Sequence record: PQ306573.1
Length of the DNA stretch: 64,000 bases
From: Escherichia phage vB_EcoM_PTE-Eco05
Strand: one strand, 5' to 3'
This document shows positions 5,742-47,453 of the stretch, in pieces (the stretch's first letter is position 1; the number at the start of each line of letters is the position of its first letter). The notes under the pieces were generated by a model that did no database searches, had not been told where the DNA came from, and was given only the letters and a program-made list of their open reading frames with translations. The position numbers were made by a program, and so were the translations under genes.

Positions 5742-6281
5742 ATGAGAACATTTTTAACTGGACCTTATCTATCCCTGATGAATGCTTTTACACACCATTC
5801 TGATGCTAGAGTAGAAGAAATTTGTAAGAACGGTTATGTCCCACCATTTGAAGACGTACTCAAGCAGTACTGTACACTTCGACTAGACGGTGGACGTCAA
5901 TCAGGTAAATCGACCGCAGTAACTAATTTTGCTGTTAATTGGCTATATGATGGTGGAACAGTTATTGTTCTTTCTAATACTTCAGCTTATGCTAAAATTT
6001 CTGCTGGCAACATTAAAAAAGAATTTTCTCGTTATTCTAGCGATGATATTCGATTCCGTTTATTTACTGATTCTGTTCGTAGTTTTATTGGCAATGAAGG
6101 TTCTAAATTCCGTGGATTAACGCTTTCTCGTATTCTGTACATAATTGACGAGCCTATTAAAGCTCCTGATATGGATAAGATTTACAATGTCCATATTAAA
6201 ACAGTCCAACACTGTTGCAAAAGCAAATATTGCATCGGCGGTATTGCTCGTCCTCAATTTTTTGTGATTGGAATGCAATGA
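5742..6281 (+). CDS. hypothetical protein with P-loop-like GRQSGKST
   Basis: 179-aa ORF; Walker A-like motif. Confidence 0.5.
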   Translation: MRTFLTGPYLSLMNAFTHHSDARVEEICKNGYVPPFEDVLKQYCTLRLDGGRQSGKSTAVTNFAVNWLYDGGTVIVLSNTSAYAKISAGNIKKEFSRYSSDDIRFRLFTDSVRSFIGNEGSKFRGLTLSRILYIIDEPIKAPDMDKIYNVHIKTVQHCCKSKYCIGGIARPQFFVIGMQ

Positions 6282-6586
6282 TGACCACTATTGAAGTTTT
6301 TGAGTATTGTTATAACAGCCCAGTATGCAATAAAAGGGCTCTTGTAGAAAATTATGAGATTTACCATTTTAAACCTAAACGATATCGTTTGACTAAAGGT
6401 CCGTTCGCAGGGCAGCAGGTTCTTTGTACTGCTCCTAATGCACGGTTGATGACTAGTATTCCGCATTTCAAAATGGAATTTATTGATGGGCCATTTAAGG
6501 GATTAATCACTCAAAGTTTAATGGCGTTTAATTCCGTCCCATTTTTGATTAAAGAAAAAACTTGGATAAATTTATTTTCTAATTGA
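6278..6586 (+). CDS. hypothetical protein
   Basis: ATGA overlap with previous stop; 102 aa. Confidence 0.45.
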   Translation: MMTTIEVFEYCYNSPVCNKRALVENYEIYHFKPKRYRLTKGPFAGQQVLCTAPNARLMTSIPHFKMEFIDGPFKGLITQSLMAFNSVPFLIKEKTWINLFSN

Positions 6587-6592
6587 GGTTAT

Positions 6593-6955
6593 ATGAAAGC
6601 ATATCAAATTCTTGAAGGTGCACATAAAGGCACTATTTATTTTGAAGACGGTACTCAAGCCCGGATTATTGTCTCTAAGACTTTTAAAGAAGACGCTATT
6701 GTAGACCCGGAAATTTTCTACGGTTTGCATGCCCGTGAAATTGAAATTGAACATCAACCTAAAGTTAAAATTGAAGGTGGTCAACATCTGAACGTTAACG
6801 TTCTGCGTCGTGAAACTCTGGAAGATGCAGTTAAGCATCCGGAAAAATATCCGCAGCTGACCATTCGTGTATCCGGTTATGCAGTTCGCTTTAACTCTCT
6901 GACTCCGGAACAGCAGCGCGACGTTATCGCTCGTACCTTTACTGAGAGTCTATAA
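6593..6955 (+). CDS. autonomous glycyl-radical cofactor GrcA/YfiD-like protein
   Basis: C-terminal ~57 aa [59 protein letters not shown] matches E. coli GrcA including the RVSGY glycyl-radical motif. Confidence 0.85.
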
Positions 6956-7179
6956 TGGCTAAATTGATTATAGAAGGGTCTGAAGATGTTTTAAAATGTT
7001 TTGCCGCCTGGTTTAGTTGCTCAGGCGAGCAATCATTCATTGAAGCATTTAGAATGGGTGATATTACTGGAAACTATCCGACAACTGATATCACTGTACG
7101 TGGATATGGTATTAATGAGCCTATCCAATTGGTCGAATATGACCTTGCCACCGATGAGGAAATTCCTTATGTCGATTGA
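6955..7179 (+). CDS. hypothetical protein
   Basis: 74-aa ORF. Confidence 0.45.
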   Translation: MAKLIIEGSEDVLKCFAAWFSCSGEQSFIEAFRMGDITGNYPTTDITVRGYGINEPIQLVEYDLATDEEIPYVD

Positions 7180-7435
7180 AGACATCAAAGGCTACAAGCC
7201 GCATACCGATGATAAAATCGGTAAAGTGAACGCTATTAAAGATGCCGAAGTCCGTCTTGGATTGATGTTTGATGCTCTGATTGAAGAAGCATATATCTTG
7301 AAAGAAAATGAAACAGAGCAACAAACCAAAGAAGATATGGATGCAGTGCAGGCTCTTAAGTATGCTAAGCAACATCTAAAAGAAGCCAGCATGTGGGCAT
7401 GTCGTGCGGTATTTCGACCTGAGGAAAAATACTAA
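7170..7435 (+). CDS. hypothetical small helical protein
   Basis: 88 aa from ATG 7170; the track's longer ORF starts further upstream. Confidence 0.45.
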
Positions 7436-7650
7436 TGGCTTCTACTATTACTGGGTTATTGGACTTCCAAGAAAAGGTCAACAAAATTTGTAGTGAATAC
7501 TTAAAGTATCTTGAAGAAGACCTTGAAGACTGTAAGGAAGAAGGCGAAGAAGACTATGCTGACCAGCGTCGTCGCCAAATCGAAGAGATGAGGCATTTCG
7601 CCAATATAGTATCTAAAGAATCCTGGGCTTTAACTCCATTTTATCAATAA
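7435..7650 (+). CDS. hypothetical acidic protein
   Basis: 71-aa ORF. Confidence 0.5.
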   Translation: MASTITGLLDFQEKVNKICSEYLKYLEEDLEDCKEEGEEDYADQRRRQIEEMRHFANIVSKESWALTPFYQ

Positions 7651-7654
7651 AGTA

Positions 7655-7704
7655 GTTTACTTCTCCTCTAGTTGTGTTACTATAGACCTGTCAACTAGAG
7701 GAGA
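7655..7704 (+). promoter_or_regulatory. early promoter (GTTTAC, 17 nt, TG-extended TACTAT) inside a perfect 13-bp inverted repeat that contains the regB SD
   Basis: TCTCCTCTAGTTG (7662-7674) / CAACTAGAGGAGA (7692-7704); -10 lies in the 17-nt loop. Confidence 0.6.
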
Positions 7705-7711
7705 AATCAAA

Positions 7712-8170
7712 ATGACTATCAATTCGGATGTTTTTATCCGCCGTAATAAACTCCGTCGAATCTTTGAAACGGAGTTCCGCAAAATAAATGCCGGTATAAA
7801 AGATGCTGCAAAGTCTCTTGGACTACCAGGCTTTCATATCAAGTATTCTCAACATCTCTTAGATCGTGCCATCCAGAGAGAAATAGATGAGAATTACGTT
7901 TTTGAATTATTTCATAAAGTAAAAAATCACGTTAAAGAAGTTGCAGAATTTTTATCAATGCCGGCACGTCCGGATGTTGATGAAGATTTTGTCGAAGGTG
8001 TCGAATATCGCCCAGGCCGTTTAGAAATAACTGACGGAAATCTTTGGTTAGGACTTACAGTTTGTCGCGAAAATCCGGCATTCAAAATGAAGACTCTTCA
8101 ATGTAGAATGGCTATTATTAACAGTAAACGACTACCAGGAAAAGCTTCTAAAGCAGTGATTAAAATCTAG
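7712..8170 (+). CDS. regB: RegB endoribonuclease
   Basis: MTINSDVFIRRNKLRR...HLLDRAIQREIDE...LQCRMAIINSKRLPGKASKAVIK close to T4 RegB. Confidence 0.93.
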   Translation: MTINSDVFIRRNKLRRIFETEFRKINAGIKDAAKSLGLPGFHIKYSQHLLDRAIQREIDENYVFELFHKVKNHVKEVAEFLSMPARPDVDEDFVEGVEYRPGRLEITDGNLWLGLTVCRENPAFKMKTLQCRMAIINSKRLPGKASKAVIKI

Positions 8171-9710: not shown

Positions 9711-10292
9711 ATGGCTAGTTTAATTTTTACATATGCCGCTATGAACGCTGGTAAGTCTGCTTCATTACTTACCGCCGCACATAACTATAAAGAACGTGGC
9801 ATGGGTGTATTAGTTCTTAAACCGGCTATTGATACTCGCGATTCAAAAGGTGAAATAGTCTCTCGTATTGGTATTCGTCAGGACGCCAATATAATTACAA
9901 AAGACATGGATATCTTTGAATTCTATAAATGGGCTGCAGCACAAAAGGATATTCACTGCGTATTTGTTGACGAAGCTCAGTTCTTAACTACTGAAAAGGT
10001 GTATCAACTTAGTCGTATTGTTGACGTATACAATGTGCCGGTAATGGCATACGGACTACGAACAGATTTTAAAGGTAATCTATTTGAAGGTTCTCAAGCA
10101 TTAATGGCTATTGCCGATAAGCTTGTTGAACTTAAAGGTGTCTGTCATTGTGGTAAAAAGGCCACAATGGTAGCTAGAGTCACGGAAGACGGACTTCCAA
10201 TTACGGATGGCAGTCAAATTGAAATTGGTGATACCGATAGATATGTGTCATTATGCCGGAAGCATTGGAATGATTTGACAGGGTTGTTATAA
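9711..10292 (+). CDS. tk: thymidine kinase
   Basis: 193 aa; P-loop NAGKSASLL, VDEAQF and Zn-ribbon CHCGKKAT...LCRKH. Confidence 0.95.
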   Translation: MASLIFTYAAMNAGKSASLLTAAHNYKERGMGVLVLKPAIDTRDSKGEIVSRIGIRQDANIITKDMDIFEFYKWAAAQKDIHCVFVDEAQFLTTEKVYQLSRIVDVYNVPVMAYGLRTDFKGNLFEGSQALMAIADKLVELKGVCHCGKKATMVARVTEDGLPITDGSQIEIGDTDRYVSLCRKHWNDLTGLL

Positions 10293-10914: not shown

Positions 10915-11472
10915 ATGAAATTTTTAAAATATGTAAGTTGGGTTGTTCTTGTTCCTATAGATTGGATCGCAGCGATTTTAGCAATTATTCTAGCACCATT
11001 TGTAGTTCCATTCCATAGTGAAAAAACCGGTAAACTACCTTATGGCTTTGACTGGATGATGACTTACGATAATCCTATCGATGGTGACCGCGGCCATGTT
11101 GAACGTTGGTCTAAAATACGTAAAATTCCTGTTATAGGTAAATATGCTCAACGCGTAGCTTGGCTATGGCGCAACAAAGCATATAATTTTTCGTATCATG
11201 TTTTAGGTCGCGAAGCTTCATCAGAATGGCACTATAAAGGCAACGCCGAAACTAAATCTGGATCTCCTGATCCGGCACATCATGGATATCTTTTAGTTTG
11301 GAACGAGTCGGCATGGGGATTATTCGCTGCTATACCTTATCTTAAGGTTGGTGGTATTACATTTTATCTGCGTGTTTACTGTGGTTGGAAACTTAAGAGT
11401 CTTTTGAGTCGTCCTATTCCACGCGCAATGCTTTCATTCCATATCAACCCTTTACGATATTACAAAAACTAA
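10915..11472 (+). CDS. membrane protein
   Basis: 185 aa; hydrophobic N-terminus. Confidence 0.55.
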   Translation: MKFLKYVSWVVLVPIDWIAAILAIILAPFVVPFHSEKTGKLPYGFDWMMTYDNPIDGDRGHVERWSKIRKIPVIGKYAQRVAWLWRNKAYNFSYHVLGREASSEWHYKGNAETKSGSPDPAHHGYLLVWNESAWGLFAAIPYLKVGGITFYLRVYCGWKLKSLLSRPIPRAMLSFHINPLRYYKN

Positions 11473-11965: not shown

Positions 11966-12244
11966 TTTACATCTTGATAGGACTATGGTATAGTAGTCCT
12001 ACCAAAACAAATGGAGAACAAAATGAAACTTTTGCTTATCGCTTATGTTGTAGTACAATATAATTATCCGATGTTTACTTATAACATGGTAAACGGCATA
12101 GTGAATCTTATTGAAACGAGTATGGTAAAATGACCTGTGAACAAGCTAATAAATTGATGGATATTATTTAATTTTATAGAAATCAGGTTGATGCGTGCCA
12201 GAATGCTTTGGTGAATTTTGTTGAAACTTTAATTGGTGAATAAT

Positions 12245-12778
12245 ATGAAAACTGTAATTGAAACAACCGAGTTGTTTGGTGATTTATGTATCGAAAAACG
12301 TGGTTATGTGTATGTTCTGACACAAGAAGATGATGCTGCTACTATTCTTCCTATGGAACTGGATAAGATTTTAAAACTCAATCCGTCTGGACGTCGTCGA
12401 GAGGTAATTAACATTGGTGAAGACCTCCAAGTTCGTTTTTATCCTGGTCTTTACAACGCGGCCAATATCGAAACTGAAGACGAATGTTTTTCTATTAATA
12501 ATTGGAAAACATTCGTCACTAAGGTGAAAGAATTAATGGAATCTGAAACAGCCAAAAAGGCCAAACTTCAATGGGCTAAATGCCGTAATGCTTTTATTAC
12601 AAATCAGGACCGCCCTGACTATACAACAGTCCTGGGAGTTAATCCTTCTTATGAAGACGGTGATGTCGTAGTTATTCGCCAAATTGATGACCTTCGTCAA
12701 CATATCATTACATTAGACAAAGATGAAGCAGTTGCTCTTAAAGCTTATCTCGATTCTATTATCCCAACTTTGAAATAA
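12245..12778 (+). CDS. hypothetical protein
   Basis: in-frame ATG 12245; track ORF begins at a TTG at 12233. Confidence 0.55.
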   Translation: MKTVIETTELFGDLCIEKRGYVYVLTQEDDAATILPMELDKILKLNPSGRRREVINIGEDLQVRFYPGLYNAANIETEDECFSINNWKTFVTKVKELMESETAKKAKLQWAKCRNAFITNQDRPDYTTVLGVNPSYEDGDVVVIRQIDDLRQHIITLDKDEAVALKAYLDSIIPTLK

Positions 12779-12787
12779 GGAATTATT

Positions 12788-13261
12788 ATGATTATCAATG
12801 AAAACTCTTGGCATTTTAAAATTTATGCCGCGTTCAATAGTACACGGAATCGCCCGAAAACGTTGTGTGCTTATTTTTGGAAAACGTTAATCCCGGTATT
12901 GTCTGTTTCAATTATTGGATTTGCGATTTTAGCAGCAGTCATAATCATTGGCCAGGAAATTTTAACTAAATTCTTTGTTTTTAGCAGTCTATGGACATTA
13001 GTTCCAGCCTCAATTGGTGTAGGCATTTTAATGGTAGCAGTCATGGCTTTTATTGCTGCTGGGTTGGTAATTGGTCCGTCTTGGTTGTTAGACAAATATA
13101 ACGACAGAAAATATTATAAAGAAATTGAGCTCATTGCACAAAACCAAGAACGAATTAAAAATGGACTGGAGCCTATTGAACGTAAGAAATCATTAATAGG
13201 CGAATACCTTAAAGCTCGTAAAGAAAAAGTCTGTCCTACTCTTGAATATAAGGCTAAATGA
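12788..13261 (+). CDS. membrane protein
   Basis: 157 aa with long hydrophobic segments. Confidence 0.55.
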   Translation: MIINENSWHFKIYAAFNSTRNRPKTLCAYFWKTLIPVLSVSIIGFAILAAVIIIGQEILTKFFVFSSLWTLVPASIGVGILMVAVMAFIAAGLVIGPSWLLDKYNDRKYYKEIELIAQNQERIKNGLEPIERKKSLIGEYLKARKEKVCPTLEYKAK

Positions 13262-14247
13262 TGAAAACGATTGTTAAGGCTTACTTTGGTAGCCACCTTT
13301 ATGGAACGTCTACTCCTGAATCTGACATCGATTTTAAAGAAATTTATGTCCCTCATGCTCGTGATATCTTGACCGGTAACGTTAAAGAACACATGAGCAA
13401 GAACACGAATAACACATCTTCTAAGAACACAAAAGACGACGTGGACCATGAGTTGTATAGTCTCAAATATTTCTTTAAACTATCTGCGGATGGTGAAACC
13501 GTCGCATTAGATATGCTTCACACTCCACAAAGTCTAGTAGTTAAATCTGATTTGCCTGATGTATGGAAGTATATTCAAGATAACAGGTCTCGTTTCTATA
13601 CCACTAACATGAAATCTTATTTAGGGTATGTCCGTAAACAAGCTTCTAAATACGGTGTCAAGGGTTCTCGACTGGCTGTTCTTCGTCAAGCCCTTAAACG
13701 TTCTAATGAATGGGGACAATACTTTGATAATGGTGCAGTAATTCGTTTATCACATATGAAGAATGTTCTGCCTGTAGGTGAATTTGCTTCGTGGGTTGAA
13801 ACCGAAAACGAGAAAACAGGTAAGCAAACATTCTATAATCTGTTAGACCGTAAATTCCAAGACACGTTAACCAATAAAGAGTTCAATGCCATCCTGGTTA
13901 AACTGGAAGAGAACTATGGTGAACGTGCTCGTAAGGCGGAAGCCAACGAAGGTATTGACTGGAAAGCATTGAGTCATGCATGTCGTGGTGGACTTCAACT
14001 ATTGGAAATTTACAAAACCGGCGACCTGGTTTACCCACTTCAGGATGCTCCATTTATTCTCGATGTTAAGCTTGGTAAACATACGTTTAAAACTGTACAA
14101 GAATTCCTAGAAGATATCGTTGAACAAGTTGAACAAGCATCAGAACAAGCCGCTAAGAACGGTATGCAACAAAAAGTAGATATGAGTTTCTGGGATGACT
14201 TCCTTGAACAAGTCTACTTAGAAAACCACAATTCGTACTATAAATGA
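13258..14247 (+). CDS. Pol-beta-superfamily nucleotidyltransferase-like protein
   Basis: GSHLYGTSTPESDIDF fits the G[SG]x9-13DxD nucleotidyltransferase signature. Confidence 0.6.
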   Translation: MMKTIVKAYFGSHLYGTSTPESDIDFKEIYVPHARDILTGNVKEHMSKNTNNTSSKNTKDDVDHELYSLKYFFKLSADGETVALDMLHTPQSLVVKSDLPDVWKYIQDNRSRFYTTNMKSYLGYVRKQASKYGVKGSRLAVLRQALKRSNEWGQYFDNGAVIRLSHMKNVLPVGEFASWVETENEKTGKQTFYNLLDRKFQDTLTNKEFNAILVKLEENYGERARKAEANEGIDWKALSHACRGGLQLLEIYKTGDLVYPLQDAPFILDVKLGKHTFKTVQEFLEDIVEQVEQASEQAAKNGMQQKVDMSFWDDFLEQVYLENHNSYYK

Positions 14248-14249
14248 TA

Positions 14250-14267
14250 AGGGCCTTCGGGCCCTTT
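14250..14267 (+). terminator. rho-independent terminator (UUCG tetraloop)
   Basis: GGGCCTTCGGGCCCTTT. Confidence 0.55.
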
Positions 14268-14353
14268 AGGGGGTGAAAATATTTTTAAAAAGTAGTGTAC
14301 ATGCTTTTAGGATATGTTATTATAGACCTATCAAAACAAGAGGAGAAAACAAA

Positions 14354-14572
14354 ATGAAAACCAAAATGTTAGAAATGATTCGTGAAGCTGGTGATAAAGG
14401 TCTTATGGTTAACACTCGTGATGCAGACCAACGTCAAGCATTCGGTGAACTGAAATCTAAAGGTCTTGTTAAAGCATCCTTGGGAATCGGTAATGCATTA
14501 CGAGTCACTTTGACTCCTGCTGGTAAAGCAGTGTTCTTTCAACCTCTTACCAAAAAATCTCGTCGCAAATAA
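14354..14572 (+). CDS. hypothetical small basic protein
   Basis: ATG 14354 after AGGAG; promoter-like GTGTAC-17nt-TATTAT at 14295-14323. Confidence 0.5.
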   Translation: MKTKMLEMIREAGDKGLMVNTRDADQRQAFGELKSKGLVKASLGIGNALRVTLTPAGKAVFFQPLTKKSRRK

Positions 14573-14642
14573 TTGTTTACTTTTGCTTTAAACATGTTAT
14601 TATAGACCTATCGAAACGAAATGAGTAAATTTGGAGAATAAA

Positions 14643-15623
14643 ATGTTCAACGTTCAAATCAAAAAAGGTATCTATCGTAATAACGAAATCTCTGGTTCTT
14701 ATGTCGCCACAAAGACATGGTTCCCGGCAAAGCTTAATCCTGAATGTTCCCACTTAGGTGACGGTAAAATTTTCGTTATGATTGATGGTTCTGAACGTGG
14801 AGTATGGGTCTTCAAATCAGACATCATAATGGAAGGAGTTGAGACATCACCAGTTGCAGTTGCTGAAAGCACTGAAGATATGAAAACTCGTATCAACAAA
14901 CGCTTTAAAGTAATGAACATGATGACGAATGGCATTATTGATGGCAAAATTCGTTCACTCATTATTTCAGGTGCAGCCGGTATTGGTAAGACGTATTCTC
15001 TGGATAAAGCACTTAATAGTGCTAATGATAACGGTTTCATCAAATACAAAAGCATTAATGGTAAAATCTCTGGTATTGGCCTTTACGAACAACTTTGGCT
15101 CAACCGTGATGCAGACAGCGTTCTCTTAATCGACGACGTTGATGTATTCTCAGATATGGACATCTTGAACCTTCTTAAAGCAGCATTAGATACCGGAGAT
15201 AAACGCAAAGTTTGTTGGAGCACTGCGTCATCTTATCTCGATGATAAGGGTATTGATAAAGAATTCGAGTTTGAAGGTACTATCGTTTTCATTACAAACG
15301 TTGATATCGATAAAGAGTTAGAACGCGGTTCTAAACTTGCTCCACACCTTCAAGCTTTAGTATCTCGTTCAGTGTATCTCGATCTTGGAGTACACTCTAA
15401 TGAAGAGATTATGGTTCGAGTTGAAGATGTAATATTATCTACTGACATGATGCAGAAACGTGGTCTGACGGATGCAGAAACGTATAAAGCATTGTCCTGG
15501 ATGAAGGCTAACGTATCTCGTCTTCGCAATGTATCATTACGTACGGCTCTTTATGTAGCAGATTTTATTTCAACTGATAAAGATGGTTGGGAGGAAATCT
15601 CTGAAGTAACTTTACTGAAATAA
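14643..15623 (+). CDS. AAA-type ATPase
   Basis: Walker A GAAGIGKT and Walker B VLLIDDVD. Confidence 0.65.
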   Translation: MFNVQIKKGIYRNNEISGSYVATKTWFPAKLNPECSHLGDGKIFVMIDGSERGVWVFKSDIIMEGVETSPVAVAESTEDMKTRINKRFKVMNMMTNGIIDGKIRSLIISGAAGIGKTYSLDKALNSANDNGFIKYKSINGKISGIGLYEQLWLNRDADSVLLIDDVDVFSDMDILNLLKAALDTGDKRKVCWSTASSYLDDKGIDKEFEFEGTIVFITNVDIDKELERGSKLAPHLQALVSRSVYLDLGVHSNEEIMVRVEDVILSTDMMQKRGLTDAETYKALSWMKANVSRLRNVSLRTALYVADFISTDKDGWEEISEVTLLK

Positions 15624-15761
15624 GCTTATAGGAAGTTCTGAGGTGACAAAAGCCATAAAGATGAATAATCATACGGCTTACCTCAAAGAAGGACACCAGG
15701 AACCTACTGAGGGCATAGGAATATTTAAAAATAATGATGTACAAATCAAAGAGGATATGTT

Positions 15762-16049
15762 ATGGATTTTATGCAAAAAATTAAAGCCGCAGTCGAACTC
15801 TATGCTCATCGTATGGTTAGTTCTACAATGCAATATAGCGAGGAGGTTCGCCAGGTCTCTTCCTTGAAAGGAAAAACTAAAGCCTTAATTACCTTAGATC
15901 GTTTGCAAAAGAATGCTATAGAGATGCTCCAGTACGACAAGGGTGTATATAAGAAAGAGCAGGAAGAGAAACTTAAATCTGAAAAATTACAAAAAATCCC
16001 GAAGTCTGTTTGGTTCAGTGGAAAAAATACCGAAAAAAGTTTCTTTTAG
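15762..16049 (+). CDS. hypothetical protein
   Basis: 95-aa ORF. Confidence 0.45.
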   Translation: MDFMQKIKAAVELYAHRMVSSTMQYSEEVRQVSSLKGKTKALITLDRLQKNAIEMLQYDKGVYKKEQEEKLKSEKLQKIPKSVWFSGKNTEKSFF

Positions 16050-16051
16050 TT

Positions 16052-16080
16052 GTTTACAAGGTCTATGGTTATGTTATTAT
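16052..16080 (+). promoter_or_regulatory. early promoter (GTTTAC, 17 nt, TG-extended TATTAT)
   Basis: flanked by inverted copies AGGTCTAT / ATAGACCT. Confidence 0.5.
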
Positions 16081-16107
16081 AGACCTATCAACTACTGGAG
16101 GTAAAAC

Positions 16108-47403: not shown

Positions 47404-47453
47404 GTTTACTTCTCCAGTAGTTGTGTTATTATAGACCTATCAACTACTGGAGA
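47404..47453 (+). promoter_or_regulatory. early promoter (GTTTAC, 17 nt, TG-extended TATTAT) inside a perfect 13-bp inverted repeat containing the downstream SD
   Basis: TCTCCAGTAGTTG (47411-47423) / CAACTACTGGAGA (47441-47453). Confidence 0.6.

Follow-up and report, generated by a model that had tools for sequence, protein, structure and literature searches.

The nrdC.11-nrdC.10 interval

We analysed a nucleotidyltransferase (NTase) gene and a nearby AAA+ ATPase gene in a 64,000-nucleotide (nt) stretch of the genome of Escherichia phage vB_EcoM_PTE-Eco05 (PQ306573.1); this whole stretch is referred to as the window, and positions are counted along it. The phage is T4-like and Mosigvirus-like, the DNA of positions 12700-16100 being 97-98% identical to that of Escherichia phages FL18 and AV116 and Shigella phage SHSML-52-1 (Mosigvirus). 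The NTase gene (13258-14247, + strand) encodes 329 amino acids (aa) and is the orthologue of T4 nrdC.11: the two proteins are 77% identical over their full length in a direct comparison with the T4 reference. The ATPase gene (14643-15623, + strand) encodes 326 aa, counted from its ATG at 14643, and is orthologous to T4 nrdC.10, with 78% identity to the T4 protein (NP_049708). T4 NrdC.11 (NP_049709, annotated 'nucleotidyltransferase', COG3541/PF10127) is encoded in the same place, 3' of tk, rI and mobD.1 and 5' of nrdC.10; the window differs from T4 in carrying a membrane-protein gene in place of mobD and an extra 72-aa open reading frame (ORF) between the NTase gene and nrdC.10. A preliminary description of the window had pointed to a GS...DxD signature in the 329-aa protein and, two genes further on, to an AAA ATPase with Walker A GAAGIGKT and Walker B VLLIDDVD. 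All of these motifs are indeed present: the catalytic motif G11-S12...D23-x-D25 (GSHLYGTSTPESDID) lies at 13288-13332, Walker A (residues 110-117) at 14970-14993 and Walker B (residues 160-167) at 15120-15143, each on the + strand.

Both genes thus have named T4 counterparts. An NTase domain in nrdC.11 and an AAA motif in nrdC.10 have been on record since 2006 (PMC1524935), and in 2025 T4 NrdC.11 was listed as an RlaP, marked in a similarity network as one of unknown function in cluster 5 (bioRxiv 10.64898/2025.12.29.696909). Since both genes and the families they belong to have been published before, novelty is low and the classification as such adds little; what the analysis offers is a corrected annotation, a sharper hypothesis and the contrast between long-short RlaP pairs in bacteria and the solo form in phages. 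Database entries often label NrdC.11- and NrdC.10-type proteins 'thioredoxin', a carry-over from the nrdC.x gene names.

Family, fold and catalytic residues of NrdC.11

To the Pfam collection the NTase has a single match above cutoff, RlaP (PF10127; 47.6 bits against a cutoff of 23, E 2.3e-12), and among PHROGs it matches phrog_388, 'nucleotidyltransferase', with E 1.7e-124. Diverse NrdC.11-type relatives behave in the same way: 66 of 67 match RlaP, and no other family was found among them. A homologue search with the window protein returned only copies that were about 98% identical, and the alignment was drawn from a search of 1.84 billion cluster representatives, which gave 3229 related clusters (747 at E<=1e-30), nearly all of about 320 aa and aligning over their full length.

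Conservation was counted over 146 diverse representatives. G11 is found in 146/146 and S12 in 145/146, D23 and D25 are kept in 145/146, and G16 and S22 are also essentially invariant. Residue 63 (codon 13444-13446, + strand) is acidic in every one of the 146 (143 D, 3 E), while D61 and D85 are kept in about 96%. The C-terminal half carries a near-invariant set of basic and aromatic residues (Y132, R223, K236, H240, R243 and K271). The AlphaFold2 (AF2) model, for which the diverse alignment was used, has high confidence (pLDDT 94.3, pTM 0.84) and consists of an N-terminal Pol-beta NTase alpha/beta domain (residues ~1-100) followed by a long helical C-terminal domain, into which a beta-hairpin insert is set at residues ~175-201, with three strands at ~177-201. 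In this model G11-S12 sits at the turn between strand 1 and the following helix, the DxD starts the strand 24-31, and D63 lies on the strand 62-68. Judged by its conservation and its place in the predicted secondary structure, D63 is the probable third catalytic carboxylate and metal ligand, and on the model the NTase has the whole Pol-beta catalytic set, that is hG[GS], DxD and a third carboxylate. Structure prediction had been suggested earlier as a way to reveal a non-catalytic fold or a missing acidic triad; neither was found, as the fold is predicted with confidence and the triad D23/D25/D63 is intact.

As the Pfam model aligns directly only to residues 7-138, cellular relatives of the NTase were sought. 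The closest is a 327-aa protein of an Asticcacaulis plasmid (35% identity over residues 2-320, E 3e-60), and another is a 338-aa protein of a Deferribacter megaplasmid. A profile of NrdC.11-type proteins matches the Deferribacter RlaP end to end (hhalign probability 99.8%, E 5e-29), and the latter covers Pfam RlaP positions 2-246 of 249. Together with the two-domain plan of the AF2 model, this end-to-end match argues that the NTase is an RlaP over its full length, and we regard its membership of the family as nearly certain. With a canonical short RlaP, direct sequence similarity does not extend beyond the NTase domain (hhalign E 5e-4 over 86 columns).

We also compared the predicted structure with solved ones. 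In Foldseek searches of the PDB the best matches were kanamycin nucleotidyltransferase (KNTase; E 7.5e-4), 3c18 and Hailong HalB; sequence and profile searches of the PDB gave no match, the copy searched evidently lacking the PfRlaP crystal structure. Structural neighbours of the NTase include KNTase and ANT enzymes, GlnE, DrrA and an MNT/HEPN protein (4nqf), its C-terminal domain resembles HEPN-like bundles, and there is a weak match to an MntA motif (E 0.03). These likenesses would suit an enzyme that nucleotidylylates a protein or a small molecule, be it MntA-like AMPylation that neutralises a host HEPN-type RNase toxin, GlnE- or DrrA-like modification of a host enzyme, or KNTase-like inactivation of an antibiotic-like compound. 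We consider such an activity very unlikely. KNTase and HalB, the nearest solved structures, show only 9-12% identity to the NTase and TM-scores of 0.3-0.5, they match other family hidden Markov models, and there is neither an aminoglycoside context nor a HalA-type partner.

The preliminary description had further noted that cGAS/DncV-like enzymes share the signature, and proposed that the NTase could make or modify a signalling nucleotide. An enzyme of this kind could counter host immunity by synthesis, mimicry or capping of a signal, and a HalB-like variant that makes oligonucleotides can be envisaged as well. The evidence does not support this idea. The protein gave no match at E<=0.1 in PADLOC, which includes CBASS cyclase models, and no CD-NTase-related Pfam or NCBIfam match; a cGAS/DncV/OAS-type fold is not among its nearest structural relatives; and its neighbours (mobD.1, the membrane protein, the small ORF, NrdC.10 and NrdC.9 in the phage, RNA-repair genes in bacteria) are neither signal-responsive effectors nor signal-degrading genes. 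We therefore hold a role in signalling to be highly improbable, and a cGAS-like label would be another misnomer beside 'thioredoxin'. An active-looking NTase and a genuine AAA+ ATPase are what stands of the earlier overall reading; with an RlaP match, RNA-repair operons in bacteria and no match to CD-NTase models, its signalling part is not supported.

Some minor observations concern NrdC.11 records. The T4 NrdC.11 translation contains an X, from an ambiguous base. A scan of genome contigs for the NTase gave only one phage-like contig of a metagenome-assembled genome and one fragment. A 43-kb contig assigned to a 'Bacilli bacterium' metagenome-assembled genome (L003, JBOFGC010000083.1) encodes a 51%-identical NrdC.11 homologue and, some 4 kb from it, a tk with 56% identity, and looks like a T4-like phage contig binned in a bacterial genome.

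Bacterial long-short pairs and a candidate role in tRNA repair

The Asticcacaulis relative is encoded in an operon with the order Hen1, Pnkp (kinase-phosphatase-ligase), long NTase and canonical RlaP (236 bits). Used as a query, it retrieved 1862 relatives, and one source names the long member 'nrdC.11'. A long RlaP (~327 aa) followed by an overlapping short RlaP (~270 aa) was seen in 7/7 bacterial contexts examined (L139:6001-7790; L144, L145, L146 and L147, each at 6001-7800; L148:7001-8811; L149:7001-8781). Two of the pairs lie inside RNA-repair operons: the Hen1-Pnkp-long-short arrangement just described, and a locus with RtcR and, divergently, Ro60, RtcB, long RlaP, short RlaP and an RNase T-like gene. 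The Deferribacter protein is encoded 2.5 kb 3' of RtcB. As bacterial long forms sit in RNA-repair operons, the NrdC.11 subfamily itself, and not only RlaP at large, is tied to such operons. Several other long-short pairs were found in toxin or defence islands (HipA, AbiEii/DUF6088, GmrSD), and the contexts of two divergent representatives, on contigs of 2-4 kb, were uninformative. The bacterial arrangement suggests that the long and short proteins form a heterodimeric or two-step enzyme. Whereas tandem cassettes in bacteria (Asticcacaulis, Dadabacteria and others) carry both forms, T4-like phages and the window carry the long form only. Short RlaP in viruses was found in jumbo phages alone (80 records, including phiKZ PHIKZ237), and is absent from T4-like coliphages and from the window. 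The phage enzyme therefore belongs to a distinct long-form RlaP subfamily, paired in bacterial Pnkp/Hen1 and RtcB/Ro60 repair operons and solo in phages.

What is known of RlaP activity comes from two Pseudomonas enzymes (PfRlaP and PaRlaP) encoded between rtcB and rtcA and characterised in December 2025 (bioRxiv 10.64898/2025.12.29.696909). They add one or two nucleoside monophosphates to RNA 3'-OH ends (dAMP also works), are inactive on DNA or protein, and work best with Mn2+. They favour the 5'-half end of a cleaved-tRNA mimic and partly restore aminoacylation of a tRNA lacking one anticodon-loop nucleotide; the crystal structure of PfRlaP is described as an N-terminal NTase domain joined to a C-terminal helical domain, with three conserved aspartates (same source). 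The window NTase has in common with these proteins the Pfam family, the GS/DxD/D set and the N-terminal NTase plus C-terminal helical plan, and just as they come from RtcB operons, the bacterial relatives of the phage protein adjoin RtcB or Pnkp. It differs from them in length, the Pseudomonas proteins being short forms of ~250-270 aa and the phage type a long form of ~327 aa with the extra beta insert in its helical domain.

On this basis we propose, with a probability of roughly 0.6, that the NTase is an intact RlaP that serves tRNA repair by adding 1-2 nt to RNA 3' ends, and that NrdC.10 is an unlinked AAA+ neighbour. What is shown here is orthology, family membership, intact motifs, the folds, the operon settings in bacteria and the absence of linkage to NrdC.10 (see below); for the phage enzyme we infer an RNA substrate, 1-2 nt addition and a role against RloC. 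Taken alone, template-independent addition of 1-2 nt to damaged RNA 3' ends is probably its chemistry, judging from the Pseudomonas enzymes. It would use nucleoside triphosphates (NTPs), probably with Mn2+, for untemplated extension of the 3'-OH of broken RNA, and its main substrate would be a tRNA broken in the anticodon loop, of which it would extend the 5' half. There it could refill the position emptied after cutting by RloC or another 'smart' anticodon nuclease of the host, and so extend the phage pathway of Pnkp and RNA ligase 1 (Rnl1), so that ligation would regenerate a usable tRNA. A 2021 survey of jumbo phages (PMC7824862) carries the prediction that nucleotides lost to nucleases such as RloC are put back by phage RlaPs ahead of ligation. 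For the NTase described here, a specific role against RloC is a tentative suggestion, and somewhat doubtful is the fuller proposition that NrdC.11 is a third enzyme of T4 tRNA repair, a solo long RlaP that re-adds the RloC-excised wobble nucleotide before Pnkp and Rnl1 act. If true, the latter would explain the near-universality of nrdC.11 in T4-like phages, and the long-standing view of RloC as an answer to phage repair would become a testable step in an arms race. Refilling of RloC-excised nucleotides by the NTase would likewise complete the textbook counter-defence pathway of T4 Pnkp and Rnl1.

The same RNA 3'-OH extension chemistry could also be put to offensive use, with the NTase tailing 3' ends of host tRNA or mRNA and thereby blocking charging (as in MenT-like toxins) or marking the RNA for decay during host shut-off. 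Such a role would suit a gene that belongs to the early region and is surrounded by promoter-like motifs, and an enzyme that is without the short partner found in bacteria. Moreover, when RlaP acted on total RNA from E. coli, full-length tRNAs and rRNAs became labelled, and the enzyme shows little NTP specificity; in a cleaved-tRNA mimic, however, it favours the broken end in the anticodon loop over that of the acceptor stem (both from bioRxiv 10.64898/2025.12.29.696909). In bacteria the orthologues are chromosomally encoded partners of repair ligases and have no antitoxin-like partner, and T4 nrdC.11 is dispensable with no reported shut-off defect (PMC9825161). Offensive tailing is therefore, in our view, unlikely.

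For tRNA repair, the distribution of the partner enzymes in phages is of interest. The T4 genes pseT and rnlA lie elsewhere in the genome than nrdC.11, and close relatives of the window phage encode the repair genes (Pnkp of AV117, 75% identity; Rnl1 of UGJNEcP1, 67%). Records of NTase, Rnl1 and Pnkp, counted per host genus, match closely, with 286, 287 and 286, respectively, for Klebsiella, 83 of each for Shigella, 69, 69 and 70 for Acinetobacter and 56 of each for Enterobacter, which fits a shared pathway. The dispensability of T4 nrdC.11 fits an accessory counter-defence role.

Several points weigh against the proposed role in tRNA repair. Besides the partial Pfam alignment mentioned above, the characterised Pseudomonas RlaPs fall in a different sequence cluster from the NrdC.11-type long form, and the solo phage protein may behave differently without a short partner. 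None of Rnl1, Pnkp, RtcB and Hen1 is encoded in the 64-kb window. Among 80 viral loci collected around NTase genes with 10-kb flanks, a gene resembling Rnl1, Pnkp or RtcB occurs within 10 kb of the NTase in only five, all of them distant and anecdotal, and most loci have none. The genus-level agreement may only reflect the near-core status of all three genes in T4-like phages. Finally, T4 tolerates deletion of the interval nrdC.11-mobD.3 on laboratory hosts (PMC9825161), and this dispensability gives no positive phenotype.

Two further observations belong here. A 151,790-bp record named 'Escherichia phage T4' (MZ375356.1) is a shortened T4 genome in which only the C-terminal 39 residues of the NTase find a match; the record probably represents a deletion derivative, and would then fit the laboratory dispensability of nrdC.11. 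In distant viral loci (L054-L084) the recurrent neighbours of the NTase gene are a NadR-like NMNAT-Nudix protein (9 loci), NAMPT (7) and an HD-domain phosphohydrolase (5, at +1 to +3), and further ones are a C5 methylase and a ProQ-C-like protein (examples of neighbours are L074:11247-11780, L057:6475-7587 and L061:12417-14015). No conserved partner emerges from these distant loci, as no neighbour is found in more than 9 of 43.

NrdC.10 and the other genes of the interval

NrdC.10 is a complete AAA+ ATPase, with Walker A and B, sensor 1, an arginine finger and an alpha-beta-alpha core plus helical lid. Its layout comprises a beta-rich N-terminal domain (residues 1-63), the AAA+ core (77-250) and the lid (253-324), as obtained with an alignment for folding that was seeded from a Vibrio-phage homologue. 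The sensor-1 asparagine is N219, an SRS motif aligns to the SRC arginine finger of RFC, and R295 and R300 are conserved. No curated family reaches its cutoff with this protein, and the profile matches PDB sequences weakly (Cdc6, 8e-4; RFC4, 5e-3; a helicase loader, 0.028). The AAA+ fold is common to NrdC.10 and to initiator- and loader-like ATPases (Cdc6, RFC, DnaA/Hda, MoxR and NtrC-type proteins). In Vibrio phages the gene adjoins ribonucleotide reductase and topoisomerase II genes, or those for a clamp loader, dUTPase and helicase, with no NTase nearby, and jumbo phages also encode NrdC.10-like proteins without an NTase. NrdC.10 is thus a widespread phage ATPase that deserves separate study, probably in the context of replication or early takeover.

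We then asked how tightly the two genes are linked, using the 80 NTase-seeded loci and 48 loci seeded with the AAA gene. The NTase and the ATPase, with or without the small ORF between them, might form one module, for instance with the ATPase as an ATP-driven loader or remodeller that brings RNA or a target protein to the NTase. In favour of this, the AAA gene lies 1-3 kb 3' of the NTase gene in 31 of the 38 viral loci whose NTase is at least 60% identical, and 39 of the 48 AAA-seeded loci, those of Acinetobacter phages included, have an NTase near the AAA gene. Below 60% NTase identity, however, the AAA gene is found in only 1 of 42 loci. Two loci (L012 and L020) have lost it and kept the NTase, the small ORF and nrdC.9; in Aeromonas phages the genes occur on the same contigs at a distance of ~40-110 kb; and from the AAA side the NTase is missing in Aeromonas-type and several other lineages, while in Vibrio and jumbo phages the AAA gene is surrounded by genes of replication or nucleotide metabolism and the NTase is not nearby. 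The AAA gene is also patchier across genera (149 records against 286 of the NTase in Klebsiella), and a NrdC.10-like gene was seen in none of the bacterial RlaP contexts examined. In the window itself, a hairpin and two promoter-like sites separate the two genes. From the linkage counts, the Aeromonas separation and these intervening elements we conclude that the adjacency is inherited synteny and not coupling, which makes a joint module quite unlikely; NrdC.10 evolves independently of the NTase and is a neighbour, not a partner.

The hairpin (14249-14266; AAGGGCC-TTCG-GGCCCTT) is GC-rich and begins two bases past the NTase stop codon. Read from the sequence, it is terminator-like or RNA-stabilising: it scores as terminator-like on the minus strand, and on the plus strand only TTT follows it. 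The promoter-like sites are of T4 type and lie on the + strand. One, at 14296-14332 (TGTACA-16-TATTAT, with the extended motif TGTTATTATAGACCTATC), is 5' of the small ORF, and the other, at 14576-14612 (TTTACT-16-TATTAT, with a TTGCTTTA box and the 18-mer TGTTATTATAGACCTATC), is 5' of the AAA gene. This 18-mer occurs nine times on the + strand of the window with up to 3 mismatches, against 0.09 expected: it is exact at 14315-14332, 14595-14612, 16072-16089 and 47424-47441, and near matches are at 7675, 26357, 54102, 54740 and 60159. The copies at 14315, 14595 and 16072, whose surroundings were inspected, each lie just 5' of a gene start and are preceded by GTTTAC/TGTACA or TGCTTTA boxes. The motif looks like the extended -10 of T4-type early or middle promoters, in which case the small ORF, nrdC.10 and nrdC.8 would have promoters of their own.

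Comparison of NrdC.10 homologues gave some side observations. The T4 reference protein (L001:8344-9321) ends in ...TGYSSEINS and the other 32 locus homologues in E(I/V)(A/S)E(V/T)(T/V)(L/M/Q)L(K/R), which suggests that in the T4 reference the 3' end of the gene carries a frameshift or a sequence difference. The NrdC.10-like protein of Escherichia phage UE-S1 (L134:4977-5750; 257 aa) is without the N-terminal beta domain and that of Pseudomonas phage MIJ3 (L135:4659-5813) is longer with a different N-terminal region, and so the N-terminal domain appears as an exchangeable module.

The small ORF between the two genes (14354-14572, + strand; 72 aa, phrog_6001) encodes a protein with a basic C-terminus. 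T4 does not have it, and among relatives it turns up sporadically (L002, L006, L012, L020 and L033); two of these are without nrdC.10. It has no Pfam match and is not similar to the small gene found 3' of the NTase in RB43-like phages. Upstream, the gene for a predicted membrane protein (12788-13261, + strand; 157 aa, phrog_944, without a Pfam match) has a stop codon that overlaps the NTase start (ATGA). It occupies the site of the T4 homing endonuclease gene mobD and is absent from the T4 reference, and it was seen 5' of the NTase gene in most T4-like loci.

The remaining genes of the interval are likewise on the + strand. Homologues of nrdC.9 and nrdC.8 follow the AAA gene; further upstream lie tk (9711-10292), then rI.1-like and rI-like genes, and mobD.1/y05I (12233-12778). 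Between the rI-like gene and the mobD.1 region there is a DUF7338 gene (10915-11472; 185 aa, phrog_2143). In all of 84 loci, those with 97-98% identity included, a counterpart is missing within 10 kb of the NTase; the local GC content is higher (0.41 against ~0.36), and the gene is probably a recent insertion.

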